NCBI GenBank assembly: GCA_023662905.1
Contig: JAMPIJ010000006.1
Span: 426 to 64,425 of the forward strand
Origin: Fusobacterium sp.
Lineage (GTDB): Bacteria > Cyanobacteriota > Vampirovibrionia > Gastranaerophilales > Gastranaerophilaceae
DNA length: 64,000 nucleotides
Direction: 5' to 3'
Position 1 is the stretch's first letter; the number at the start of each line of letters is the position of its first letter. The notes under the pieces are model-generated. The model did not search any database and was not told the origin of the DNA. It saw only the letters and a program-made list of their open reading frames with translations. Positions 8,241 through 56,128 of this stretch are shown here, piece after piece. Position numbers and translations under genes: made by a program.

Positions 8241-9581
8241 ATGTTAATAGAATTTAGCGTAGAAAATTATAAATCGATAAAAGAAAGAATTACTTTAAGC
8301 CTACAAGCCGCAAAAGATACAAAACTGGCTAAAAATATAACAAAAATCAATTTACCTCAAATAGATAATCAAAAAACAACCCAAAGGATTTTAAAAACAT
8401 CTGTTATATATGGCGCAAATGCCTCAGGGAAATCAAATATTTTAAAAGCAATGGACTGTATAAAAAAAATTATTCGTACATCCCATAATTACATAACAAA
8501 TCAACAATTCCCTATTGATAATTTCCGCTTAGATTTAAGCTACACATCAAAACCAACAATGTTTGAATTTATTTTTATTCAACACGGTATAAAATACGCA
8601 TATCAAGTTTCACTAACAAAAGAAAAAGTTTTAGAAGAAAATTTATATTATTGGCCAAACGGTAGACAAGTTAAAATATTTGAACGTGATGAGGAAAAGA
8701 TAATCTTAGGAAATTCCTTTAAAGGTAAAAACCAAGAAGATGATTTAAGAAATAAAATCTACGCTCAGGACACCGCAGAAAACACATTATTCTTGTCTAG
8801 AGCCAACAATGTTAATATTGTAGAAATGAAAGAAGCATTCAATTGGTTTGCGACTAAACTTGTAATTATTTACCAACAAATTGGGATTGGTAATGCGACA
8901 TCTAATATGATAGCAGACAACATACTGAATGAACAAGAAGTTTTGAACTGTTTAAAAATTGCAGACCCACAAATCGCCGATTTTAATCTAGTCAAAAAAG
9001 AACTGGAGGATGTGGAAAATCATCCGATGAATTTGTTTATAAAACAAGTTATTCTACCACAGATAGCAAAAAAAGAAAATATAAGAGTAGAAAATCTTGG
9101 AAAAATTTTAGGATTAAAAATTGATGAAAAAACACGAAGATATGCTATCACAGAAACAGGTGAAAGAATATTAGTAGATTTTGACCTTTCTGAAGAATCT
9201 GATGGAACACAACGTTATTATGGTTTGCTTGGGCCAATTTTAGCCTGCCTAAAAACAGGATGTACCCTATTATTTGATGAAATGGAATTAAGATTGCACC
9301 CTCTGTTATCAAAAGGACTTATTGACCTATTCACATCAGAATTAAATTCCCAAAATGCTCAATTAATAATTACATCACATGATGTCAATTTACTTGATTA
9401 TAAAGGTCTTTTTAGACGAGATCAAATTTGGTTTACAGAAAAAAATGAGGATAGTTCTACCGAGTTATATTCACTTGATGATTTTACCGGCATTCGAGAC
9501 AGCATGATACAATCTAAAAATTATTTAAAAGGTAAATTTGGAGCAATTCCGGATTTGAACTGGGAGAATTTGAATGATTAA
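8241..9581 (+). CDS. ABC/SMC-like AAA ATPase (AAA_15/AAA_21 type), AbiLi-like
   Basis: N-terminal MLIEFSVENYKSIKE..., Walker A GANASGKSN, Walker B LLFDEMELRLHP, and ITSHD near the C-terminus. Confidence 0.8.
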   Translation: MLIEFSVENYKSIKERITLSLQAAKDTKLAKNITKINLPQIDNQKTTQRILKTSVIYGANASGKSNILKAMDCIKKIIRTSHNYITNQQFPIDNFRLDLSYTSKPTMFEFIFIQHGIKYAYQVSLTKEKVLEENLYYWPNGRQVKIFERDEEKIILGNSFKGKNQEDDLRNKIYAQDTAENTLFLSRANNVNIVEMKEAFNWFATKLVIIYQQIGIGNATSNMIADNILNEQEVLNCLKIADPQIADFNLVKKELEDVENHPMNLFIKQVILPQIAKKENIRVENLGKILGLKIDEKTRRYAITETGERILVDFDLSEESDGTQRYYGLLGPILACLKTGCTLLFDEMELRLHPLLSKGLIDLFTSELNSQNAQLIITSHDVNLLDYKGLFRRDQIWFTEKNEDSSTELYSLDDFTGIRDSMIQSKNYLKGKFGAIPDLNWENLND

Positions 9582-18422: not shown

Positions 18423-20654
18423 TCATTTATTGGCTAGAAACCTGTTTTTAAATTGATTTTGGGAAGCCAAGAATGAATTATAATCAGCCGCTTGCGGAGC
18501 TTGTTTTTCCATTTTATGAACAACTCTTTTTTGTCCTTTTGGCACTGCCATATCAACATATTTTTTGATTTCGACTCTAACGTCTGACACCTGTTTTTCT
18601 TTACCGGTCAAATCGCGAATCATATTTTTATTTCTGTCATATTTGAAGCCATAAATCTTGTTGGCTTTGATATCTTCAAGAACTTTTTCATCCAATGCTT
18701 TGATTGTATCTAAATCCGCAGAGGCGAAGTCGTCGTGCATATAGCGTTTTGCAATTTCTTGGAATTTTTCTTTGCTTACGTCAGCCTTGGTCATTTTTTC
18801 GCAGTGTTTTGCAAGCCAAATCATAAACGCAGGTACAAACAATACTATTGACGCTGCTCCGAATGTGCTGTTAAGCATTTTCGCTTTTTTAACAAGTTTG
18901 TTGTCAGGGTTTTTCAAGATATCAACGATTGCGTCTACGTGTTTAGAATTTTTTGTCTTCTTGAATACTTCTTCAATTTCGGCGTTTTTGCAGTGTTCAA
19001 GTTCTTTGCCCATAACTTTTTCTGCGTGTTGTTTAATTTCAGGGTCTATAGCAAGCATTCTCTTGAGGTTGCCGCCGTTTTCCTGAACGAATTCGAAGAA
19101 GCCGTTGATTCCGTCTTTGTAATCCTGAATATTGCTGTATTTTGCAGTAATTTCGCCGCTCTTCAACACGCCGATACCGCCGGTTGGAGAGAAGTAATTT
19201 TTGAATTTATGCATAAACGATTTTTCGTGATCGTCCGGTGTAACGTTGAGTGCAAGCCCAGAAACACCCGCAAAGATTTTTGAGAAACCGCGTGAAAGTG
19301 CGTTCGCACCAAACAGAATTGACGCAAAGCTGAACAAATCTCTTGTCCAAATCTCTTTTCTATCATGATGATCTGTTGAATTTGCAAGTCTTGTAGGCAA
19401 GCAGAAACCAAATAACAATGCAAGTGTTGAATTTGTAGTCATTGAAGCGCCATCAAATTCAAAGAAATCAGACGCTTTTTTGAGATGTTTATTTTTCATC
19501 ACTTTTTCAGCAACATTAGTGAAAACTTCTTTTTTACCTGAGAAGCTTACTTTATCTGCATTATTAGCATTATTAGCATTATTATTATTTTTTGTTTCTT
19601 CTACAGCCGGAGTATGTTCTTCCAAACCTGCCATACCAGGGTTTTTGCCGTCCAAGCCCATACTGTAGATTTTTGGAATCATAAAGTAGAAGCCAACAAC
19701 TGCCAGCCACATACCAACGTTAGTCAACGCACGTGAACCCATTCTGCGTGTTGTATGCCCTTTGATAAATTCAGCAAGATTTCCGTTTTTATTTTTGTCA
19801 ACGAACTGCTTCGTATGCTCAACGGTATCTTTTGTATAATCAAGGAGTTTGTCTGAAAATGCAGAGAATGAAGCAGAAATTTTAGACGCTTTTGCGTCCT
19901 GCGGTTGTAATTCTGCTACCCAATGAGAAGCAGCCGGTGCTGTATATCGTTTTTTAATAGCGATAAATTCATTAGAAAGTTTTGCCATCAAATCTTCTTT
20001 AGAACCCTCAACGACTTTACCTGAAAGATTTTTAAAGAAGCCTTTAGATTTAGCATCTCTGATTGCAGTCAATTCATCAGCGAATTTTTTTGCAGTAGCG
20101 TTGAGTTCTTCTTCAGGCATAGCGCCGGCGGTAGAAGTTTTCAACACATTTTTATACACCTGTTCATAGAATTCAGTCTGAGTTTTAGCAGTATCGGCAA
20201 GATTAACATTTTTGCCAGAAGCATATTTACCAAATTCACCGCCAAAAGCTTTAATAAAATCAACAGGAACATTATTTGCAGTTCCGGAATATTTTTTAAC
20301 GAAATAAAGGATAGATGCAGGGATTACGAAAACGCTAGGGCCTGAAAGGCACTCTCGGATACCCTCACGCTTGGCAAACTCCCAGTTCAAGTGTCCGGTT
20401 TCCTCTTTATTACGGTTAAGTCCCTCGTAAATACGAGGTGCAACCATACCGCAGCAATCCTGCGCCATAAAAGAAGCAACAAATCCGCCGCGTTCAATAC
20501 CATCCATAAACATAACGACAGCATTAGCCGCGTTACCGAACGCTACGTTCTGGCCGTTTTGTTGACTTAAATTATACTGAGGTTGTTTCCTTACTTCTTT
20601 ATTATTGTCAGAAGTACGATTGTTTAACTTTACACTAACTGGTTTTACTGACAT
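18423..20654 (-). CDS. Large multi-pass membrane protein, hypothetical, with shared N-terminal leader
   Basis: 743 aa with several hydrophobic helices (e.g. VGMWLAVVGFYFMIPKI, AASIVLFVPAFMIWLA). N/A-rich linker NNNNANNANNAD. N-terminus MSVKPVSVKLNNR...NVAFGNAAN. Confidence 0.6.
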   Translation of the reverse strand: MSVKPVSVKLNNRTSDNNKEVRKQPQYNLSQQNGQNVAFGNAANAVVMFMDGIERGGFVASFMAQDCCGMVAPRIYEGLNRNKEETGHLNWEFAKREGIRECLSGPSVFVIPASILYFVKKYSGTANNVPVDFIKAFGGEFGKYASGKNVNLADTAKTQTEFYEQVYKNVLKTSTAGAMPEEELNATAKKFADELTAIRDAKSKGFFKNLSGKVVEGSKEDLMAKLSNEFIAIKKRYTAPAASHWVAELQPQDAKASKISASFSAFSDKLLDYTKDTVEHTKQFVDKNKNGNLAEFIKGHTTRRMGSRALTNVGMWLAVVGFYFMIPKIYSMGLDGKNPGMAGLEEHTPAVEETKNNNNANNANNADKVSFSGKKEVFTNVAEKVMKNKHLKKASDFFEFDGASMTTNSTLALLFGFCLPTRLANSTDHHDRKEIWTRDLFSFASILFGANALSRGFSKIFAGVSGLALNVTPDDHEKSFMHKFKNYFSPTGGIGVLKSGEITAKYSNIQDYKDGINGFFEFVQENGGNLKRMLAIDPEIKQHAEKVMGKELEHCKNAEIEEVFKKTKNSKHVDAIVDILKNPDNKLVKKAKMLNSTFGAASIVLFVPAFMIWLAKHCEKMTKADVSKEKFQEIAKRYMHDDFASADLDTIKALDEKVLEDIKANKIYGFKYDRNKNMIRDLTGKEKQVSDVRVEIKKYVDMAVPKGQKRVVHKMEKQAPQAADYNSFLASQNQFKNRFLANK

Positions 20655-21068
20655 TTCCCTACCAAATATACATATACACTATCTTATAAAGTTCTGCGCA
20701 GAATATTTATTGCTAATTTTTTTAATAAATTTAAAAAAATTTTACAAAACGCAATTCTGCACAGCGTGCAAATAATTGTAACTATTACAATTATAATTTG
20801 CAATACCTTTTACTACAATCTTAACAAAAGATTACAAAAGGATATAAATTAATTAATCCGCCAGAGGGTTGATTTTTTATTTTTTTATAATTAAATATAG
20901 ATATAATTTTTATTTGCATCTTGGATATAAATAAGGGAACTTGTGTTGAGGAGAAGTTTTTCATTTTAAGAAATGTAAATTTTTTAAAATTAGTTCTTAG
21001 TAATTAGCAAAAAAAAATTATCAGAAGTTATTTGCAGACATAGAGGTTTTTTCCTAAAGGAGTTGTGT

Positions 21069-27604: not shown

Positions 27605-28873
27605 ATGACAATCGCCGAAATGAAATATGAAGTTAAAGACTTAAACCTTGCTGATCAGGGTAAAAATCAAATCGAATGGGCTTTTAAAGACATGCCTGTT
27701 TTGAAATTGATTCAAGAAAGATTTATAAAAGAACAACCATTCAAAGGATTAAAATTATCTGCTTGTGTTCACGTAACAAAAGAAACCGCGGCGCTTTGCG
27801 TTGTAATGAAAGCCGGCGGAGCTGACGCTATTCTTGTTGCGTCAAACCCATTATCAACTCAAGACGATGTTGCGGCAGCACTCGTTAAACACTACGGAAT
27901 CCCAACTTTTGCGGTTGCAGGCGAAACTCCTGAACAATACCGTGCGCACATCGAAGAAGCTATCAAACACAATCCTGACATCATTATTGATGACGGTTGC
28001 GATATTGTTTCAGACTTACACTCAAAACACCTCGATATGTGTTCAAAAATCATCGGTTCAACTGAAGAAACCACAACCGGTATTACACGCTTGCAAGCGC
28101 TTGAAAAAGAGGGAAAACTTCAATTCCCAGCTGTCGGCGTAAACACAAGCATGACAAAACACCTTTATGACAACCGTTACGGCACAGGCCAGAGCGCTAT
28201 GGACGGAATCTTCCGCGGTGCAAATATCCTTATCGCAGGTAAAACCGTTGTAATTTCAGGCTACGGCTGGTGCGGAAGAGGCTGCGCGCTTAGAGCAAAA
28301 GCACTCGGCGCTAACGTAATCGTTTGCGAAGTTGACCCGCTAAAAGCACTTGAAGCCGCAATGGAGGGTTACAGAGTAATGCCTATCGCTAAAGCAGCGC
28401 TTGAGGGCGATATTTTCTTAACAGTTACAGGCGACAAACACGTTGTTGACGTTCATCACTTACTCACGATGAAAGACGGCGCATTCGTCGCAAACGCAGG
28501 CCACTTTGACTGGGAAGTTAACGTAAATGGCCTGAAAGAACACACAACTGAAATCAAACAAATTCGTCCGAACCTTGAAGAATACAAACTCACAAACGGT
28601 AAATCAATTTATGTATTTGCGCAAGGCCGCTTAGTAAACCTTATCGCCGCAGAGGGTCACCCTGCAAGCGTAATGGATATGAGCTTTGCAAACCAAGCAT
28701 TAGGTATTGAATTCCTTGTTAAAAACAAAGGCAAATTAGAAAATAAATTATACACGCTTCCTGAAGAAGTCGATATGAACATCGCAGAATTGAAACTAAA
28801 ATCAATGGGAATCGAAATCGACACACTAACAGAAGAACAGCAAAAATACCTAAACAGCTGGGATGTAATCTAA
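27605..28873 (+). CDS. ahcY: Adenosylhomocysteinase
   Basis: 422 aa. Contains LADQGKNQIEWA, TGITRL, the GYGWCGRG NAD-binding motif and HFDWE. Full-length similarity pattern. Confidence 0.93.
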   Translation: MTIAEMKYEVKDLNLADQGKNQIEWAFKDMPVLKLIQERFIKEQPFKGLKLSACVHVTKETAALCVVMKAGGADAILVASNPLSTQDDVAAALVKHYGIPTFAVAGETPEQYRAHIEEAIKHNPDIIIDDGCDIVSDLHSKHLDMCSKIIGSTEETTTGITRLQALEKEGKLQFPAVGVNTSMTKHLYDNRYGTGQSAMDGIFRGANILIAGKTVVISGYGWCGRGCALRAKALGANVIVCEVDPLKALEAAMEGYRVMPIAKAALEGDIFLTVTGDKHVVDVHHLLTMKDGAFVANAGHFDWEVNVNGLKEHTTEIKQIRPNLEEYKLTNGKSIYVFAQGRLVNLIAAEGHPASVMDMSFANQALGIEFLVKNKGKLENKLYTLPEEVDMNIAELKLKSMGIEIDTLTEEQQKYLNSWDVI

Positions 28874-28878
28874 GAATT

Positions 28879-28912
28879 AAGCGGCTCGGAGAAATTTCCG
28901 AGCCGCTTTTGT
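28879..28912 (+). terminator. ahcY terminator
   Basis: AAGCGGCTCGGA/TCCGAGCCGCTT stem followed by a T-rich run. Confidence 0.7.
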
Positions 28913-28913
28913 A

Positions 28914-28942
28914 TTGACAGTAACGCAAACATAATTTATAAT
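28914..28942 (+). promoter_or_regulatory. Perfect consensus sigma-70 promoter
   Basis: TTGACA (28914-28919), a 17-nt spacer, TATAAT (28937-28942). RBS AAAGGA and the ATG at 28972 lie downstream. Confidence 0.65.
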
Positions 28943-29021
28943 AACAATGTAAAAAGAAAGAAAGGATTAATATGAAAAATTTAAAAGCTGGAAAGCCTTG
29001 TCCTGTAGCCATTTCGGCTAA

Positions 29022-29032
29022 GGGGGGGGGGG
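29022..29032 (+). repeat. Homopolymeric G(11) tract inside the pilin leader-coding region
   Basis: Counted directly: 11 consecutive G residues. Confidence 0.95.
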
Positions 29033-29059
29033 TATGGTTTAACACGTAAAGCATTCACT

Positions 29060-30007
29060 ATGGCAGAGATACTTTTATCTCTAACGATTATCGGTGTAGT
29101 TGCGGCGATTACGTTGCCATCACTCACGGGAAACATCAACGAGCGGACATGGAACACTCAACGAAAAGCTCTTTACGCGCGGATGTCACAGGCAATTTCA
29201 CTTATGCCGGCACTTAACGGTTATGGCCAACTAGCCGAGGCCACATCTTCAACTTCTGCAGTCGACACAGCGACTGAAACTTTCGTTACAGGCGGATTAT
29301 CAAAAGTTTTAAAACTGAACAACATTTGTGACAACACACACCTTGCGGATTGCGGAATTCCGGCAAAAATCACCCCGCTTAGCGGAACAAGTACCATTGA
29401 TACATATTCAGCATTAACAGACCTAAAAGGTTTAAATAGTATGTTTTACGATGGTGTTTACACATATCAGACTGCCACATACACAAACCCGAAACCAGTA
29501 AACACCAAAAGCGTTGCATTTGAAACGCAAAATGGTGAATCAATTTTAACATTCTACAACCCATTATGTCAGAGTGATATGGCCGAAACCGTTTCACACT
29601 TTGCGATGTCAAAAATGTGTATAAATTTCGTCTATGACCTCAATGGAACCAAAGGACCAAACACGGTTGGTAAAGATATAGGTGTCATAACAGTCTTCTA
29701 TCCAACGGATTCCAACGTTGTCGCACCTATGCCTCTGACACGTGACGCCGGAAGTGAAATTTGGGAAAAAGCGCCGTCGCTATGTACAGCTCAAGAAACA
29801 GATAGCAGGATTCCAAACCGCGACGAACTCTCTGCGATGTTCTTCAACCGAAACCTTTTTGGCTTGCCGCAAGCAGTTGAATACTGGTCAAGTTCAATCA
29901 TTTCAGTTAACAATTCAATTCAGGCCTGGAAACAAGGTTTTGGTACAGGCTATAGATACGCACAGGCAAGAACCAACTCGGGTTCCGTAAGATGTGTTAA
30001 ACGATAA
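29060..30007 (+). CDS. Type IV pilin-like N-terminal domain protein with DUF1566-like C-terminus; 5' end out of frame at the G tract (true start probably 28972)
   Basis: The ORF frame read upstream of 29060 gives RKA/FTMAEILLSLTIIGVVAAITLPSL, a prepilin cleavage/methylation motif with Glu+5, but has no start codon. The ATG at 28972 is in the -1 frame relative to it. C-terminal RIPNRDEL...YWSSS...VRCVKR resembles DUF1566. Confidence 0.7.
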   Translation: MAEILLSLTIIGVVAAITLPSLTGNINERTWNTQRKALYARMSQAISLMPALNGYGQLAEATSSTSAVDTATETFVTGGLSKVLKLNNICDNTHLADCGIPAKITPLSGTSTIDTYSALTDLKGLNSMFYDGVYTYQTATYTNPKPVNTKSVAFETQNGESILTFYNPLCQSDMAETVSHFAMSKMCINFVYDLNGTKGPNTVGKDIGVITVFYPTDSNVVAPMPLTRDAGSEIWEKAPSLCTAQETDSRIPNRDELSAMFFNRNLFGLPQAVEYWSSSIISVNNSIQAWKQGFGTGYRYAQARTNSGSVRCVKR

Positions 30008-30046
30008 TAAAAATCCCGCTCAATTGGGCGGGATTTTTATTTTTTA
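30008..30046. terminator. Bidirectional terminator between convergent genes
   Basis: ATCCCGC/GCGGGAT stem flanked by A and T runs. Confidence 0.65.
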
Positions 30047-30433
30047 TATTTCTTCTAACGAAATTCCGGTGACGCCGGCGTTTCGAGCGCTGTCCATAAC
30101 CTTTACGATAGCGCCGTGGGTCGCGTTATCGTCGGATTGTATCAGCACTCCATCTGGATAATCTTTAACCTTGCCCGCAATCGCTAGTTGCAATTGCTCC
30201 GCCGAAACTTCCTGTTCGTCAACAAAAAATCTGTCTTCTGGCGAAATTCTTACCGTCAAAATTTTAACATCTTTATTATGAACCTGTTCCGCAACGTTTT
30301 CAGGAACTGTCAAATTCAAGCCCTGTTGATCCAACATCGGCGCGATTACCATCATTATAATCAGCAATACCAAAAAGATATCCGTTAACGGCGTGATGTT
30401 AATTTCATTAAATTCACCGCGATTTTCAGCCAT
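30044..30433 (-). CDS. exbD: ExbD/TolR-family biopolymer transport protein
   Basis: INITPLTDIFLVLLIIMMV TM motif. 129 aa. Confidence 0.85.
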   Translation of the reverse strand: MAENRGEFNEINITPLTDIFLVLLIIMMVIAPMLDQQGLNLTVPENVAEQVHNKDVKILTVRISPEDRFFVDEQEVSAEQLQLAIAGKVKDYPDGVLIQSDDNATHGAIVKVMDSARNAGVTGISLEEI

Positions 30434-30885
30434 TATCCGTTAACCTCCTCGTTTTGTTTTTTCAGTTCGTTCTGTTCCTTTTTAGAAAGCGGTTCACCGG
30501 CAACGATTAATTTCGTAAACTCTGCCTCCTGTGCCGCGTTCATTATGTTCATAATCTCAGAACTTTTCACCATAGCGTCAGCTTTTACTACAACCTCAGG
30601 TGTTTCAAGTTCAGGTTTCAAATCGACAAGCGCCTGAACCAAATCCTGCTTTCTTATTGCAGTACCATTAAGATAAAGTTCACCGGCTTTATTAACAGAA
30701 ATCGTTGCGTTTTTCTGTTCAATAGAAAGCCCGCTGTTGATTTCAGGCATTGTAATTGTCGTGTCCGCGTCCTGAAACGTTGGTGCTACTACCATCATGA
30801 TGATTAAAAGCACCAGAAAAATATCCGTCAGCGGAGTTATATTGATTTCTGTGAATAACGCTTGTTTTCCTGTTTTAATAGCCAT
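30433..30885 (-). CDS. exbD: ExbD/TolR-family biopolymer transport protein (second copy)
   Basis: The same INITPLTDIFLVLLIIMMV motif. 150 aa. Confidence 0.85.
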   Translation of the reverse strand: MAIKTGKQALFTEINITPLTDIFLVLLIIMMVVAPTFQDADTTITMPEINSGLSIEQKNATISVNKAGELYLNGTAIRKQDLVQALVDLKPELETPEVVVKADAMVKSSEIMNIMNAAQEAEFTKLIVAGEPLSKKEQNELKKQNEEVNG

Positions 30886-30906
30886 GTTTAATCCTTTAAT
30901 TATTCT

Positions 30907-31020
30907 TGTAGCTCGCGTAGAACGCCACCGCTCGCGTTTGCTGCCGAAAGCGTGGTTTCGCCAGTCGCACGCTCGTCTCTTCGATTGCTACGCAATCTCC
31001 GTGGCTCCGCTCGCTACAGT
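30907..31020. repeat. GC-rich structured element, copy C, in the exbB-exbD intercistronic gap
   Basis: Alignable over about 110 nt with copy B. The GATTGC/GCAATC hairpin corresponds to GGAATGC/GCATTCC in B with a compensatory change. Confidence 0.6.
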
Positions 31021-31661
31021 GCTATATTGCTTGTTGTTTGAATATTAGTATCATCTTTTGCGTCGATGAAGCTCAAGAACAACATTTTGATTAATTGGAA
31101 GTTAGCTTCGTACTGACGAACAGTCGCTTGGAAGAAGTTGTAGAATACAACCGCAACAATCGCAACGCCCAAACCAAATGCAGTAGCAATCAATGCTGAT
31201 GCGATACCTGATGCAACAGCGGCTGATTGGTTACCTTGAACCGCAAGGTCTTGGAACGTAATCAAAATACGAACAACTGTACCGAACAAACCTAAGAATG
31301 GTGCAACACCACCGACAGTACCAAGAACTGTCAAGTTTTTTTCTAATTTTCTTGTTGCAAGGGCAGTTACGAGGTCAAAAGAACGTGAAAAACCGCTTTT
31401 TTGTTTTTCAAAAATTCTTACCGCTTCTTCCGTAACATCTCCGATAACGCCGCCGCACTGAGTAGCCATGTTTTCAACGGTTTCAAGATTGTTTCTTGCA
31501 AGTTCTTTTTGCAAAGATTTCAAATAAGGAACAATGTTTCTTTTATTAGCTTTAAAAAACATAGCCTTTTGAATAACAACTGCCACAACAGCCACTGAAC
31601 ATAAGAAAATCGGTGTTAAAACCGCCCAGTCCATTTTAATTGATTCCCACAATAAATTCAT
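31014..31661 (-). CDS. exbB: MotA/TolQ/ExbB proton-channel protein
   Basis: 215 aa, three TM segments, GLFGTVVRILITF motif. Confidence 0.85.
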   Translation of the reverse strand: MNLLWESIKMDWAVLTPIFLCSVAVVAVVIQKAMFFKANKRNIVPYLKSLQKELARNNLETVENMATQCGGVIGDVTEEAVRIFEKQKSGFSRSFDLVTALATRKLEKNLTVLGTVGGVAPFLGLFGTVVRILITFQDLAVQGNQSAAVASGIASALIATAFGLGVAIVAVVFYNFFQATVRQYEANFQLIKMLFLSFIDAKDDTNIQTTSNIAL

Positions 31662-31695
31662 AATTTTATCCTCTTATTTTGTATTGTATTACTTT

Positions 31696-32835
31696 TTAGT
31701 TATATCCTGCTGCGCCGAAGACGTTGTAGTCAAAGGTGAACTGGATGTCGATGTTCGGGCCTTTAAAGTCAGGCGGCAACGGTTTGAATGGTGCTGTCAG
31801 TTGAACGGCCTGAATTGCGGCTTTGTCTGCGTTTGGAAGTCCTGATGATTTGTGAACCGTGCAGGAAAGAAGTCTTCCATCTTTCGCGATTTTAAACATC
31901 AAGACAACACGTTTGCTCTGATCGCCTTTAGGTGGATCCCAATTCATTTTAATTCTTCTTTGTAATTCTCTCATATACGGGCCGAAATCCGGTTCTCTGA
32001 TTGCGTCAATCCCAGGGGCGCCGTTAGGATTTCCAGGGCCTGGATTGCCCGCTGAACCGTAGCCACCGCCGGAATTCGCGAGTTTAGAACCGCTTGAAGC
32101 ACCGCCACCGGTTGGCGCAAGTGTCGGAGATGGTGTGCTTGCTGCTCTTGCTGAACTTACAGCTTGAGAAGCCGTTTTACCAGAACCGCTTACAGGGCCT
32201 GTAGAATATTTACCCGCCTGAGTGCCGCCTGTTGGAACAGGAACGGTGAATTTTGAAGTTGGTCTTTCAACAACTTTAGGTGTCATTGCCGGTCTTACTG
32301 ACGGTTTAGCACTTGGCGGCTGTTTTGTAGGCTGTTGCGCTGCTGGTTGCGCAGAAGCAACAGGTTTTTGAGCCGGTTGTGCTTTAGCCGGTTTTTGCGC
32401 AGGTGCAGGCGATTTTGCCGGAGCCTGAGCCTTGGCTGGAGCCGCTGGCTTTTGCGCCTTATTCCCAGGTGCTGTTGGGAGCGAAACTTTTTTAGACGGA
32501 TCGTGTTTCCCACCAGCTCTTGAATCCCTATCCGCACGATACGGAGTTTTTTTGTTTATTGGTGGCGCACTCTTTTCTACAAGCACAAATTCAATATCTT
32601 TAGTCTTTAAATCAGGACGTTTTGCAAGCGGGTTGATTAAGCCCAAAAGCATTAACACAAAAGTCAAAAGCCAGATTGTTCCAACAACCACAGGGTGCAG
32701 GATTAACGAAATTAGCATTGACTTTTGCAAACTCATTTCGTTCTCGTCGTCAAAGCACACTGCAGGAACGTGAAAAACCTCTTTGTCTTTTGCGCCCTCA
32801 TCTATTAAATTATCTTCTTGGTTTAATAATGACAT
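31696..32835 (-). CDS. tonB: TonB-family energy transducer
   Basis: N-terminal TM, long Pro/Ala/Lys-rich spacer (PAKAQPAQKP...), and a C-terminal TonB fold region (...VVLMFKIAKDGRLLSCTVHKSSG...). Confidence 0.8.
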   Translation of the reverse strand: MSLLNQEDNLIDEGAKDKEVFHVPAVCFDDENEMSLQKSMLISLILHPVVVGTIWLLTFVLMLLGLINPLAKRPDLKTKDIEFVLVEKSAPPINKKTPYRADRDSRAGGKHDPSKKVSLPTAPGNKAQKPAAPAKAQAPAKSPAPAQKPAKAQPAQKPVASAQPAAQQPTKQPPSAKPSVRPAMTPKVVERPTSKFTVPVPTGGTQAGKYSTGPVSGSGKTASQAVSSARAASTPSPTLAPTGGGASSGSKLANSGGGYGSAGNPGPGNPNGAPGIDAIREPDFGPYMRELQRRIKMNWDPPKGDQSKRVVLMFKIAKDGRLLSCTVHKSSGLPNADKAAIQAVQLTAPFKPLPPDFKGPNIDIQFTFDYNVFGAAGYN

Positions 32836-52177: not shown

Positions 52178-55100
52178 TTACAACTTATATCTAAATGCGA
52201 ATTGCAAGCCAACACCGGATCTTCCGCCAGATCTGAACATAGCTTGCAAAAAGCCTGTCAGACGTTCACCAGCGGTTTTCTGAACCCCTAAACCATAGTT
52301 GAAATAAGGGTCAATACTCAACTGAGGCAACGCAACATCGTTCGCACGGAATCTTGTATCATCCATAATGTTCCAAACAATTGAGAACCCGAGGTATGGC
52401 TGCCAACCGTTTTTAAGGTTTCCGATAAACTTCAAGCCCGGATTGATTTGAATAACGTTTAGTGCGTCAGAATTCAAACTTACGCCCGCCGCGTTATGGT
52501 AATCAAACGTATTAATAAAACTATAAGACATCAAATAGCTAGGCTGAATTATAAATCTACCACGTGCAAGTTCCCAGTTATAACCGGTTTTAGACGCGAC
52601 ACCTGCCATAAGCATTGTGAAATTATCGTTTCCGTACATGGTACTTGCCTCACCGACATTCGCTCCGACGTTTGCGGTCAATGCTGAGAAGAAATTTCCT
52701 TTATACGCAACACCCGTTAAACCAAGCTGTCCGCCGTTTTGATAAATACCGTTTCCGTTATAAGTTTGATGGCTACCGTTGTAACCCGCGTAGAATGATA
52801 AAATTCCGTCAAACCCGTATTTTAATCTTGTCAGGTCAGAATCAACCCCGAAGAATGAGCCGTAGGCTACGTTATGAACTTTTGGTCCATTACTTAGGCT
52901 TACGTTTTCAAACGTACTATAAGGCTTAACCCATGCGCCTTTTTCTTCGTGCGGGTTAAGTGTCGGAGAATAAGGGCCGCCTTGCGTTGAGGCAAAAATA
53001 TTTCTGTGTTTAATTGCATCTCTTTTCTCACTTGGCATTAACATATACATATCCATATTATTAAATGCCATATCGTAAGAATTCAACTGTGTAAGATACG
53101 CACCGACAAGCGCGCCAACAGGGCCTGTCATGACAGCAGGGTTGTAGCCTTTGTAATCCTTTCCGCCAGCACCGGAAAACAACATTTGCCCCGTTTCAGG
53201 TTTATATTCTACCCCATATCTGTAAATAGGGCCGTAAGCTTCGGTTGCAGTATTCGGGTTAAGTTCAACTTTTCCGAGCAGAGGACTGTTTCCGTCAGCA
53301 TCTTTTTCAACGATATCAAACATGGTCACCGGTTTTAAATCTCTGTTATCATAAAGAACATTAATTTTATCAATAATAAGTTTTCCGTCACCTGTAACGC
53401 TGTTTGCGGCAATAGTATCGTGTTCACCGTTAATCATATTAACATCTAACCCAAGTCTTCCGCCATTACCATCAAGATAAAGGTTGCCGAAATTCACTGA
53501 ATTTGCCTGATTGTTGATGAGGTTCAACATTGAACCGTTTTCAAAATGTGTATTTGCGGCAGTAAAATATTTAGAATCTTTCAAAAGAATAGTTTCACCC
53601 GCAGTAAAGTGAACATCACCGGTGTAATTGCTGTTATCCCCGCCGAGTCTTAATGTTCCGTAATCCTCTTTCACAATATTGCCGGTTCCGCTGATTCCAC
53701 CGTTGAACGTAATACTTTTTGCTCCATTCAGAGTTAATTCGCCACCGTCAAGATGAATATCATTACCCACGCCATTTGCCGTGTTTCCAGAGAAAACAAC
53801 GTCACGTCTGTCCGCTGTAATAGTAAGTTTGCCGCTATTATTTATAGCGCCGCCGTTTTCACCGGCTTTGTTATCAATAAAAGATGAATTATAAATTTTT
53901 GCGACACCGGTATTATTTAAAACACCGCCGCTTAATTCTGTTGAGTTATTTTTGAACACAGATTCCATAACAGTTAATTCGCCTGCGTTATCAACAACAG
54001 AACCGTTGAAATCATGAACCGATTTGGCTCCGTTACCAAGTCCCATATTAACCATTTCAAGCCTTTGGCCATCAGAAACTATGATTCCACCTTTTCCGGC
54101 ACCATCCAAATCCGCGCCGTCAAGATTAATCTTCAAATAATCTCCACCCATCTGTCCTAGGGAATCAGCATCCTTAAGCGTAATATCTACATCAGAGCGA
54201 TAAACTCTTGCACCATCTGCAATAATTGCATCAGCAAGACCGTTTGTTGTATCGCTTGCGACATTAACCACACCATCTTCACCAAGTGAAAGTGTATATT
54301 TTCTCTTGTCGCTATACTGAACCAACTCATCACCCGTTGCCCAGCCAAAATCCTCGGCTACTCTATTGAATAGTTGAAAACTTTCTGCGTTGCCATCTTT
54401 GATTTTTATATCAACGTGTTCAGCGTCAAACTTCAAGCCTCCGGACATTTCTTTAGAAACATTGATAAAATCACTTTTGCCCTGTGCAAGATCAGCGTCA
54501 AACGCGAGTTGAATATCCTCTGAATTTCTTGCCTCAAAGTTTCCAAGGTTAAGCGTATCAAGTTTCCCATTCGCCATATCAAGCTTTCCGCCATCAAGAT
54601 AAAGGTCAACATTTTCAAATATTGCCTTTCCATCAGCTAGATTATTACTTTCCGCCTGATTAAGTGTTAAAGTTCCGCCTTTTTGTGTGACTCCAATATT
54701 TTTCACCTGTCCGTTGAAAACGATATCCCCGTTCAACTCAAGCTGGGCATCAGTAGTTGTCCAGTTAGAACCCGCAATTCCGTCGTTGAAAAGCAATCTG
54801 CTTCCCTCACCCTGAGTCATCAACTGTACCTTACCGCTATCAACGTACAACGCATTAGATTCCGGTGAGCCATAAGTATCATCAAGGTTATGCATATTTC
54901 CGGTAAACTCATGAGTTTTTCCATCATTAGAAACGATTCTAACCATTTTACCACCGCGGATTTCAGGATCTTGAGATACATTTACATAAATTGCACCACC
55001 GCTATTTTGGTCGTTAGTATTATTAATAAAATCAGTGTTATAAATCAGAAGAGATTTTGTCGGATAAACATCAGAGGTATTGTTGGAATTAACAACATAA

Positions 55101-56128
55101 GTAATCGCACCTCCTCGAGTACCCGCGTGGTTTCCCTCAAATCTGCTGTTATTAATCTGTAAAGTTCCCTCATTAACTGCTATTGCCCCACCAAGAGTTT
55201 CCGCTCTATTACCTGTAAATACAGCGTTTTCAATAATATTTGGGTCATCATTCGCGATATAAATAGCCCCGCCTTGACTTGCTTCATTATTAGAAAATTC
55301 ACTATCATTAACCCTAAAATTACCAAGCGAATAAATGGCACCGCCACGTTCATCTGCAGTATTACCTATGAAATGAGAATTATTTATAGTTATTCCCTGC
55401 CCGAGTGAGCCATTGCTGGAATAAATTGCCATTGCACCACCCAATTGTGCGGTATTGTCATTAAATGTTAGATTATCAAAAGAAGCGACTGTTCCGTCAA
55501 CATAAATCGCCCCACCCTCTGCTGCAGAGTTTTTTTCAAAAATAGTATCGTGAATTGCATGCGTTATGGAATTATCATTTATCGAAACATTATTAAGTCT
55601 TATTGCACCGCCGTAGCCGCCAGCATGGTTTCCAGTAAAATTGGAATCAGAAATAACAATATTTTTTGTACCACTCATATAAATAGCACCGCCATCGCGT
55701 ACCGCAGAATTACCGATAAAATCAGAATTCGTAATAGATCCGGACTTAGTATTGTGTAATAATAAAGCGCCACCGCCGGTTTTATTCATATCTGCCGTAC
55801 TGCGGTTTGAATCAAATGTGCTTCCATCAACAAAAATAGAACCGTTATAATTATAAATTACACCGCCGCCACCAGGGAACATTCCCATAATATTACCGTG
55901 GGTATTAGTATTATTTCTAAAAGTATTATTAACACTACGAACCTCACTGTTAACAGTAGCGCTAATCCCACCGTATGCTTGCATGATAGAATTATGTGCT
56001 GCGTCAGTTTGATTTTCATAGGTTTGACCGTCAACAATGTCCAAACCAAAAGACTTTTCACTATTAATTGTACAGCAAAGCATAAATGCTGCACAGGCCA
56101 TTAACAACGACTTGTATTTCTTTTTCAT
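52178..56128 (-). CDS. Autotransporter with polymorphic-membrane-protein (Pmp) GGAI/FxxN repeats
   Basis: Signal peptide, at least 9 GGAI(Y) motifs alternating with F-x-x-N (FTGN, FEKN, FNDN, FIGN, FSNN), and a C-terminal beta-barrel-like domain of about 280 aa. Confidence 0.8.
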   Translation of the reverse strand: MKKKYKSLLMACAAFMLCCTINSEKSFGLDIVDGQTYENQTDAAHNSIMQAYGGISATVNSEVRSVNNTFRNNTNTHGNIMGMFPGGGGVIYNYNGSIFVDGSTFDSNRSTADMNKTGGGALLLHNTKSGSITNSDFIGNSAVRDGGAIYMSGTKNIVISDSNFTGNHAGGYGGAIRLNNVSINDNSITHAIHDTIFEKNSAAEGGAIYVDGTVASFDNLTFNDNTAQLGGAMAIYSSNGSLGQGITINNSHFIGNTADERGGAIYSLGNFRVNDSEFSNNEASQGGAIYIANDDPNIIENAVFTGNRAETLGGAIAVNEGTLQINNSRFEGNHAGTRGGAITYVVNSNNTSDVYPTKSLLIYNTDFINNTNDQNSGGAIYVNVSQDPEIRGGKMVRIVSNDGKTHEFTGNMHNLDDTYGSPESNALYVDSGKVQLMTQGEGSRLLFNDGIAGSNWTTTDAQLELNGDIVFNGQVKNIGVTQKGGTLTLNQAESNNLADGKAIFENVDLYLDGGKLDMANGKLDTLNLGNFEARNSEDIQLAFDADLAQGKSDFINVSKEMSGGLKFDAEHVDIKIKDGNAESFQLFNRVAEDFGWATGDELVQYSDKRKYTLSLGEDGVVNVASDTTNGLADAIIADGARVYRSDVDITLKDADSLGQMGGDYLKINLDGADLDGAGKGGIIVSDGQRLEMVNMGLGNGAKSVHDFNGSVVDNAGELTVMESVFKNNSTELSGGVLNNTGVAKIYNSSFIDNKAGENGGAINNSGKLTITADRRDVVFSGNTANGVGNDIHLDGGELTLNGAKSITFNGGISGTGNIVKEDYGTLRLGGDNSNYTGDVHFTAGETILLKDSKYFTAANTHFENGSMLNLINNQANSVNFGNLYLDGNGGRLGLDVNMINGEHDTIAANSVTGDGKLIIDKINVLYDNRDLKPVTMFDIVEKDADGNSPLLGKVELNPNTATEAYGPIYRYGVEYKPETGQMLFSGAGGKDYKGYNPAVMTGPVGALVGAYLTQLNSYDMAFNNMDMYMLMPSEKRDAIKHRNIFASTQGGPYSPTLNPHEEKGAWVKPYSTFENVSLSNGPKVHNVAYGSFFGVDSDLTRLKYGFDGILSFYAGYNGSHQTYNGNGIYQNGGQLGLTGVAYKGNFFSALTANVGANVGEASTMYGNDNFTMLMAGVASKTGYNWELARGRFIIQPSYLMSYSFINTFDYHNAAGVSLNSDALNVIQINPGLKFIGNLKNGWQPYLGFSIVWNIMDDTRFRANDVALPQLSIDPYFNYGLGVQKTAGERLTGFLQAMFRSGGRSGVGLQFAFRYKL

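Follow-up and report, generated by a model that had tools for sequence, protein, structure and literature searches.

This study concerns a gene for a prepilin-like protein at positions 28914-30007 of a 64-kb stretch of DNA (64,000 nucleotides, called the window throughout) and, in particular, the run of G residues that interrupts its 5′ coding region. The source organism is a Candidatus Gastranaerophilus (Melainabacteria), an uncultured gut bacterium. An earlier reading of the same letters, which we call the original prediction, had described a pilin-like gene that is switched out of frame by this run and had proposed slipped-strand phase variation as the cause. The features of the locus, from upstream to downstream, are these:

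28879-28908, + strand: intrinsic terminator of the upstream ahcY gene, with a 13-bp stem (8 GC pairs) followed by a T run
28914-28942, + strand: sigma-70-type promoter TTGACA-17-TATAAT, 12 of 12 consensus positions, directly 3′ of the ahcY hairpin
28960-28966, + strand: ribosome-binding site (RBS) GAAAGGA, assigned from the sequence, 5 nt ahead of the ATG at 28972
28972-29021, + strand: start codon and 5′ part of the leader (MKNLKAGKPCPVAISAK)
29022-29032, + strand: G11 homopolymer, the putative slip-prone switch, out of frame as assembled and in frame as G10 or G13
29033-29053, + strand: spacer, reading YGLTRKA in the pilin frame, which forms the end of the leader (Lys -2, Ala -1)
29047-29049, + strand: TAA that ends the 25-aa abortive peptide of the G11 (off) state
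29054-29125, + strand: predicted class III (prepilin) signal core with Phe+1, Glu+5 and the hydrophobic alpha1-N segment FTMAEILLSLTIIGVVAAITLPSL
29054-30007, + strand: coding sequence of the predicted mature modular pilin, 317 aa plus stop, with an N-terminal helix, a beta-rich middle and a C-terminal lectin-like domain
29771-30001, + strand: Lcl_C (DUF1566)/C-type-lectin-like domain, a putative ligand-binding module, aa 267-343 of the fused protein
30006-30041: bidirectional intrinsic terminator with a 16-bp stem and a T run, common to the pilin gene and a convergent exbD-exbD-exbB-tonB-like operon

The open reading frame (ORF) upstream of the pilin gene, at 27605-28873, encodes S-adenosylhomocysteine hydrolase, as identified by a Pfam AdoHcyase match on the syntenic ortholog. 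The predicted ahcY terminator sets the pilin gene apart as its own transcription unit, and the gene is predicted to be monocistronic because the second terminator, at 30006-30041, closes that unit. No known RNA element was matched in the 5′ region; Rfam returned only sub-threshold look-alikes of leaders and terminators, at 29950-30092.

The two reading frames of this gene meet in the tract. From the ATG at 28972, the frame encodes MKNLKAGKPCPVAISAKGGGVWFNT and runs into the stop at 29047-29049; the G11 tract begins 50 nt past this ATG. The long ORF, at 29060-30007, comprises 315 aa; followed back beyond its first ATG, the same frame encodes ...GGGYGLTRKA/FTMAEILLSLTIIGVVAAITLPSL. In the assembled G11 state, this second frame contains no ATG, GTG or TTG before 29060, and no RBS precedes the ATG at 29060, which is separated from the leader stop by 10 nt; with G10 or G13 a start codon is present. 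Changing the tract in silico to G10 or G13 yields an uninterrupted ORF of 344 or 345 aa, respectively, whereas with G8, G9, G11, G12 or G14 a stop follows after 22-26 codons. The spacer between the tract and the pilin body is a multiple of three and is open in the pilin frame. The promoter, RBS, ATG, both reading frames and the stop all lie where the original prediction had placed them; its tract at 29022-29032 contains exactly 11 G, and the fusion of the frames that it had described is reproduced by our in silico lengths.

The N-terminus of the fused protein resembles that of a prepilin. The NCBIfam model TIGR02532 (prepilin cleavage/methylation) scores 19.5 bits, above its cut-off of 16.3, and the Pfam model PF07963 (N_methyl) scores 16.9 bits, below its cut-off of 21.2. 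The junction reads ...TRKA/FTMAE, with Lys at -2, Ala at -1 and Phe at +1, and continues as F1-T-M-A-E5-ILLSLTIIGVVAAITLPSL, in which Glu+5 is followed by a hydrophobic alpha1-N segment of ~20 residues; the prepilin motif with Glu+5 that had first drawn attention to this frame is thus present. Across 22 aligned homologs, E32 of the fused protein, although not invariant, is kept in at least 90%, and residues 33-60 are invariant. Among the paralogs, the residue at -1 is either Ala or Gly. A six-frame search of the window found no further pilin-like N-terminus.

The C-terminal domain points to a possible binding function. The Pfam model PF07603 (Lcl_C) matches with an E-value of 1.2e-6 and 29.3 bits, under its 34.9-bit cut-off, and several orthologs have a precomputed PF07603 match, weak where shown. 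An AlphaFold model built with 22 homologs (mean predicted local distance difference test score 74.6, and 81-94 across aa 260-344) shows a long helix at the N-terminus, then a beta-rich middle domain and finally a C-terminal domain. Its best Foldseek match in the PDB is 8q4e_A, the C-terminal domain of Legionella Lcl (E 1.2e-4, root-mean-square deviation 2.4, target TM-score 0.60, 26% identity over 102 alignment columns), followed by dozens of C-type-lectin-like domains, among them those of snake-venom and other animal lectins. A search of PDB sequences with the profile likewise found 8q4e at the C-terminus (E 1.4e-4), and solved type IV pilins and GspG weakly at the N-terminus. The resemblance to DUF1566 noted at the outset is therefore real, modest by sequence (sub-cut-off) and borne out by the predicted fold. 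On this combination of motifs and modelled structure, the product is best described as a putative modular type IV pilin-like protein with a lectin-like binding module.

We then considered whether the G run could be a product of base composition. The window has 38.5% G+C, all of its other G or C runs are six nucleotides or shorter in 64 kb, and the expected number of runs of at least 11 is 0.0016; a chance origin of G11 was rejected on these grounds. The idea that the run is a plain glycine linker was rejected as well, given that GGG is the rarest glycine codon in the window (84 of 953, 8.8%) and that about three quarters of the classifiable copies of the family are out of frame. A single G run cannot form an intramolecular G-quadruplex.

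To ask whether the tract varies at this locus, we used Logan contigs and unitigs from four sequencing runs of one study (X1-X4), so that the data are at the contig and k-mer level; only unitigs that reach 29052 were taken as locus-specific. Run X1 contains 100% of the locus words. Its long contigs end at the tract, a 2856-nt contig stopping at 29031 and a 5506-nt contig beginning at 29023, and unitigs from 29010/11 to 29052, which cross the tract into window-specific sequence on both sides, carry G11 at a depth of 7.1 and G10 at a depth of 4.4. Tract length is the sole polymorphism in X1 over 136 nt (28940-29075). Runs X3 and X4 contain the same strain variant (T>C at 28896 and the same divergence after 29042), and their consensus tracts are G11 (8.7x) and G10 (16.9x), respectively. 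G11 was the sole form seen in X2 and X3. As a control, an A9 tract at 21009-21017 is spanned by one 15.7-kb contig and shows no indel variant. Tract-length polymorphism is thus present at the window locus at the contig level. The single in-frame length that the original prediction had named as the mark of an assembly error is not what the unitigs contain, because X1 holds both lengths and X3 and X4 differ. Illumina or polymerase chain reaction (PCR) slippage could produce such a pattern; even so, a minority form of 38%, together with consensus differences across samples, lies far above ordinary error.

The pilin body is maintained by selection. Related loci occur in Candidatus Gastranaerophilus and Gastranaerophilales metagenome-assembled genomes (MAGs), including Ca. 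G. phascolarctosicola Zag_221 and the complete HiFi chromosome OZ007029.1, and the gene order ahcY, pilin gene, exbD, exbD, exbB is conserved. The protein has 2377 database homologs, the closest of which are 85-88% identical. Compared with syntenic or near orthologs at 85-88% amino acid identity, the nonsynonymous divergence (dN) is 0.085-0.10, the synonymous divergence (dS) is saturated (>1.8), and dN/dS is 0.016-0.054. On this comparison of sequences, the pilin body is a functional gene under strong purifying selection and not a decaying one. The ortholog in Zag_221 (L002) shares the long leader, and its assembly shows a gap (NN) precisely where the tract would be.

The gene belongs to a large family, and the tract belongs to the family as well. 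A genome scan found at least 444 copies, of which the best 80 loci, from six genomes, were analysed together with the window (410 kb; ~88 copies). Homologs have in common a near-invariant N-terminal segment of ~45 residues, FTMAEILLSLTIIGVVAAITLPSLTGNINERTWNTQRKALYAR, and a variable C-terminal half. Given at least 444 copies, the fact that the best 80 loci come from six genomes, and a 20- to 60-fold rise in depth over the FTMAEILLSLTIIGVVAAITLPSLTGNINERTWNTQRKALYAR segment in the source runs, we conclude that there are tens of paralogs per 2-Mb Gastranaerophilus genome. A tract of G8-G15, mostly 11-13 in length, lies no more than ~500 nt upstream of Phe+1 in 51 of the ~88 copies (N-free). Conversely, 51 of the 58 G or C tracts of nine or more in the 410 kb lie upstream of a family gene at a distance of no more than 600 nt; the remaining seven comprise three further family leader cassettes (two cut by the locus end and one before a variant FTMSE) and four contig-end homopolymers.

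The surroundings of the tract are conserved in a manner that speaks for expression through it. Paralog cassettes from other genomes retain the promoter TTGACA-17-TA(A/T)AAT at a matching position, their RBS is likewise conserved as GAAAGGA or GGAGG, and the RBS and ATG stand at a fixed distance ahead of the tract. In one type of leader, MK[KR]xNVL[ST]C[AT], this distance is 30 or 33 nt; in the window's leader type, MKxxxxENPCxMG..., the ATG lies 46-50 nt before the tract, as also seen at L002, L007, L040, L063, L069, L070, L071 and L080. The stretch from the tract to Phe+1 ranges from 12 to 488 nt, yet its length is a multiple of three in 36 of 51 copies, and 13 more, which come from a single MAG, keep to a different fixed register. 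In the 8614 nt of these stretches, the pilin frame contains 16 stops, of which 13 fall in two copies with a downstream start of their own, compared with 176 and 156 in the other two frames. Translation would therefore begin upstream of the tract and run through it into the pilin, and the conservation of the spacer frame is hard to explain in any other way. The variability of the spacers fits a leader that is cleaved off and whose sequence would be free to vary. Of the 35 copies in which an RBS-ATG can be recognised and the spacer is open, 8 are in frame as assembled (one of four on the HiFi chromosome OZ007029), which is close to the one third of random phase and unlike a fixed glycine-coding stretch.

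Some leaders contain additional elements. The long ones (L005, L009, L020, L021, L035, L036, L044, L045, L056, L064, L074 and others) are mosaics of GC-rich palindromic repeat modules such as CCGGCTGAGCCGG, GTCATGCTGAACTTGTTTCAGCATC and GATCCCGAAATAAATTCGGGATGACA, translated for example as CHAELVSAS and DRSRNKFGMT. These modules resemble elements of the repetitive extragenic palindromic or miniature inverted-repeat transposable element type (REP/MITE), yet the pilin frame runs through them without a stop for up to 462 nt. Other leaders (L012, L019, L027, L051, L091 and others) have a second ATG 5-8 nt before the tract, as ACATGCA-Gn or ACATGCGCA-Gn, in another frame than the RBS-linked ATG. 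Gene callers use this codon and report 'MQGGGG...' proteins; the window's leader is without it. By analogy with Haemophilus influenzae lic1, the second ATG could supply a second, weaker 'on' phase.

Length differences are also found at paralogs. At a locus between a PMT-family gene and dapF, the tract is G13 (out of frame) in five assemblies and G12 (in frame) in L089 and L090, from the same study. The flanks of L084, L086 and L087 (G13) and of L089 and L090 (G12) are identical, whereas the G13 locus L085 has a different upstream region and the G13 locus L088 has short-spacer changes. Gene calls in the 90% protein cluster of this paralog are 328/329 aa (MKKRTVNILTGGGG...), 320 aa (MQGGGG...) and 307 aa (MAEILL...). 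In a chicken-gut paralog (L009), G12 at a depth of 9.85 and G13 at a depth of 7.94 occur within a single run, X13, and G13 occurs in another run.

Exchange around the tract was observed as well. One promoter-leader-tract cassette is joined to differing downstream sequences, which diverge after 29042 in X3/X4 and after 29040 in X1/X2, and the same gene body stands behind other promoter and leader versions (L085 and L091 compared with L084), with breakpoints that adjoin the tract. These mosaics of cassette and body reflect either recombination between paralogs or assembly chimeras formed via the repeats.

Assemblies of these regions bear several marks of difficulty. Zag_221 (MOYE01; L002, L003 and L046) has N gaps exactly at three tracts, including that of the ortholog of the window's gene. 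Artefactual poly-C stands at contig ends beside family genes (L029 1-66 and L076 1-54), many short-read contigs end 30-340 nt upstream of a family gene, and the gene calls of the family are inconsistent, being either cut at MAEILL or extended far upstream.

We conclude with good confidence that the window locus is a classical slipped-strand contingency locus for a phase-variable prepilin-like protein. The phase variation put forward in the original prediction is supported by the G10 and G11 unitigs, the G8-G15 tracts across the family, the spacer frames and the purifying selection. Several observations weigh against this conclusion. The heterogeneity at the locus rests on Illumina-type unitig k-mer depths; in such data long G runs are prone to error, and PCR stutter may look like length variants. 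The depth of tract-crossing k-mers is 11.5, about half of the 23.8 in the flank, which makes the G11:G10 ratio soft, and a paralog in X1 and X2 that has the same leader and tract, followed by GYG/FTMAE, complicates the depth accounting. Ala rather than Gly at -1 and a leader of 27 residues (in the G10 form) are atypical for type IVa pilins. A scan limited to the 10 largest ORFs of the window found no prepilin peptidase and no pilus genes; pilA, pilB, pilC, pilT and pilD have been reported in the genome of Ca. Gastranaerophilus termiticola (PMC5877343). In some paralogs a further RBS and ATG stand shortly ahead of the cleavage site, and the tract may not control their expression. Copies in the MAG JAZUCM01 (L015, L030, L033, L037, L041, L042, L058, L065, L066 and L072) have a strong internal GGAGGTAAACATG start past the tract: their G9-G11 follows a ...KSSI leader, and the GGAGGTAAACATG start comes 100-340 nt later, in the pilin frame (EVNMSKNLG/F). 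Judging by this arrangement, the expression of the JAZUCM01 copies may be independent of the tract.

A further observation of this kind comes from the syntenic orthologs L081-L083, in three assemblies, which are without the tract. There, a similar promoter and RBS are followed by ATG AAA CAA GCG / TTT (MKQA/F, or MKNYA/F), and these short leaders imply that the mature protein is expressible from a conventional leader of 4-5 residues. The long poly-G leader would then be an alternative 5′ module that the protein does not require. The original prediction had held that the tract's absence from relatives with an intact gene, along with a lack of length variation, would count against switching. Tract-free relatives do exist in L081-L083, but 51 copies of the family carry G8-G15 and their lengths vary. 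Between ahcY and the tract-free pilin gene, L081 (1028-1336, minus strand) and L083 (1029-1334, minus strand) contain a divergent gene of the XRE family with a helix-turn-helix domain, which may represent deterministic regulation that replaces stochastic switching.

Other explanations of the tract have to be set against slipped-strand switching. In one, already raised as an alternative in the original prediction, G11 is a homopolymer sequencing or assembly error: the true tract would be a fixed, in-frame G10 (or G13) in an ordinary constitutive prepilin, and the run would merely encode Gly-Gly-Gly. Illumina chemistry is weak on long G runs, the sister-species reference MAG has N's at tracts, short-read contigs frequently break there, and G10 is indeed present in the source run X1. 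However, G11 is the majority form in X1 (7.1 vs 4.4) and the only one in X2 and X3, family tracts range from G8 to G15, and the roughly three quarters of classifiable paralogs that are out of frame come from six independent assemblies, the HiFi chromosome included. A row of three to four consecutive GGG codons is very unlikely where GGG makes up 8.8% of glycine codons, and a fixed glycine stretch needs no perfect homopolymer in every paralog. We regard such an error as very improbable. A slim chance, in our estimate, belongs to the idea that RNA-polymerase slippage or +/-1 ribosomal frameshifting bypasses the tract, yielding a constant in-frame fraction, with the tract tuning the level of expression without heritable switching. 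Other bacteria are known to undergo transcriptional slippage on long homopolymers, and this idea would accommodate both the many copies that are out of frame yet conserved and the many leaders in which a second ATG, in another frame, directly precedes the tract (ACATGCA-Gn, the source of the MQGGGG... calls). Nevertheless, length differences within and between samples exist at the DNA level and amount to heritable variation regardless of what happens to the RNA; a bypass is also not exclusive of slipped-strand switching.

It could also be argued that the state of the tract has no consequence, either because the gene is a decaying pseudogene or because the protein is made from the ATG at 29060 by reinitiation. 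With many paralogs in the genome, losing one is cheap, the 10 nt between the leader stop and this ATG are compatible with reinitiation, and gene callers do begin the protein at MAEILL. Against this stand the intact 317-codon body under strong purifying selection with saturated synonymous sites, the perfectly preserved promoter, RBS and leader, and the lack of an RBS before 29060. A product that begins at Met+3 would be without the cleavage site and Phe+1, both of which are needed for type IV pilin maturation, and the conservation of the spacer frame over 51 copies points to translation from upstream of the tract. We rejected the pseudogene on dN/dS and the intact expression signals, and we consider it highly improbable that either version of this argument holds.

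The on/off switching of the window's gene is what we infer from the contig- and k-mer-level evidence, and with it the slippage mechanism, its reversibility, processing by PilD, incorporation into a pilus and ligand binding. In the mechanism that we propose, a strong constitutive promoter and the RBS would drive translation from the ATG at 28972 into the tract-bearing leader, and slipped-strand mispairing at replication would lengthen or shorten the G run by one residue. In the G10 and G13 states, the ribosome would pass through a leader of 27 or 28 residues into the pilin body; with G11 (the assembled and majority form) or G12, it would terminate after 23-25 codons, and the gene would be off because the body has no start codon or RBS of its own. 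In the on state, prepilin peptidase would cut after Ala27 (-1), leaving FTMAE... with Glu+5, and the cleaved 317-aa lectin-pilin would enter a type IV pilus or pseudopilus and display its Lcl_C domain as an adhesin. If each paralog switches independently, the result would be a combinatorial, stochastic set of lectin-pilins on the surface.

The closest precedents for such an arrangement are the pilC1/pilC2 and opa genes of Neisseria. As in pilC1/pilC2 of N. gonorrhoeae and N. meningitidis, where +/-1 slippage toggles a pilus-associated adhesin, the tract is a poly-G in the 5′ coding region (PMC5320596). The gonococcal pilC tract, G9-G15, is an experimentally proven switch (Jonsson et al. 1991, per PMC5320596), and its length differs across strains and within passaged cultures (PMC5320596). 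PilC, however, is a large non-pilin tip/assembly protein with an ordinary signal peptide and two copies per genome, whereas in the window it is the pilin-like protein itself whose class III prepilin leader contains the tract, in a family of tens of copies and in non-photosynthetic Cyanobacteriota. The opa genes are a multigene family with CTCTT repeats in the region that encodes the leader peptide and switch at ~1e-3 per generation (PMC3960869); they resemble the present family in being adhesin genes of a multigene family, with a promoter for each copy and a repeat inside the coding region of a cleaved leader (PMC3960869). The opa copies switch independently, giving combinatorial expression (PMC3960869), and we propose the same for the Gastranaerophilus family. 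They differ in that the repeat is a pentamer that encodes part of a hydrophobic Sec signal, whereas the window's tract sits in a hydrophilic prepilin leader, and in that their products are outer-membrane beta-barrels, encoded by 3-4 or 11 copies per genome.

More distant parallels are found in other bacteria. The low-GC genomes of Campylobacter jejuni and Helicobacter have long G or C tracts that are confined to surface-structure genes, at tens of loci, and in H. influenzae lic1 the repeat is preceded by several start codons in different frames, which give graded expression. The second ATG of some Gastranaerophilus leaders recalls lic1. The loci of these three systems are mostly glycosyltransferase, restriction-modification and lipooligosaccharide genes of diverse families, whereas here essentially every tract falls within one paralogous pilin family. 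In its architecture, the predicted protein is like Streptococcus sanguinis PilB and PilC, in which the N-terminal module of a pilin carries a grafted globular binding module; we know of no phase-variable tract in these modular pilins. In the modelled fold of its C-terminal module, of the Lcl/C-type-lectin-like kind (8q4e), it is like Legionella pneumophila Lcl. Lcl binds sulphated glycosaminoglycans (PMC11162425). It differs from the present protein in being a trimer with collagen-like repeats and not a pilin.

These comparisons place the mechanism among known contingency loci, whereas the lineage and the gene family are new. Among open-access papers and bioRxiv preprints, we found no description that links Melainabacteria or Gastranaerophilus to this pilin family, to DUF1566 or to a repeat-mediated switch. 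It is conceivable, though we advance it tentatively and at somewhat less than even odds, that gut Melainabacteria possess an undescribed contingency system that occupies several percent of a 2-Mb genome, combining tens of poly-G-gated, lectin-tipped pilins with a 5′ cassette exchanged by recombination next to the tract and with a leader that, being discarded, tolerates in-frame insertions of up to ~150 codons of palindromic repeat DNA.

Other features of the window lie apart from this system. The convergent operon at 30044-32835 (minus strand) consists of exbD-exbD-exbB (MotA_ExbB) and a Pro/Ala-rich TonB-like ORF and is conserved in L081-L083. An ORF of 1316 aa at 52178-56128 (minus strand) has Chlam_PMP (Chlamydia polymorphic-membrane-protein) repeats, and its product is probably another large surface or autotransporter-like protein. 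At 8241-9581 (plus strand) there is a 446-aa ORF for an AAA_21/AbiEii-like ATPase, a possible component of a defence or toxin-antitoxin system, and at 18423-20654 (minus strand) a 743-aa ORF that has no Pfam match at E <= 1e-5.

Gastranaerophilales are widespread, uncultured gut commensals of humans and animals. Our data indicate that they have a large, stochastically switched repertoire of lectin-domain pilins, which offers a testable handle on attachment to host glycans, food particles and other microbes, and might also offer one on evasion of IgA or phages. For metagenomics, the family is systematically mis-called in MAGs, through truncation at MAEILL, extension into upstream junk and loss at contig breaks or N gaps, and tract-aware annotation is needed to see it. 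The mechanism itself is classical, and the advance lies in its scope and lineage and not in its principle. If the proposal is true, a leader that tolerates junk would be a new twist on prepilin biology, and this uncultured phylum would vary its surface chiefly through the stochastic, combinatorial display of lectin-pilins.

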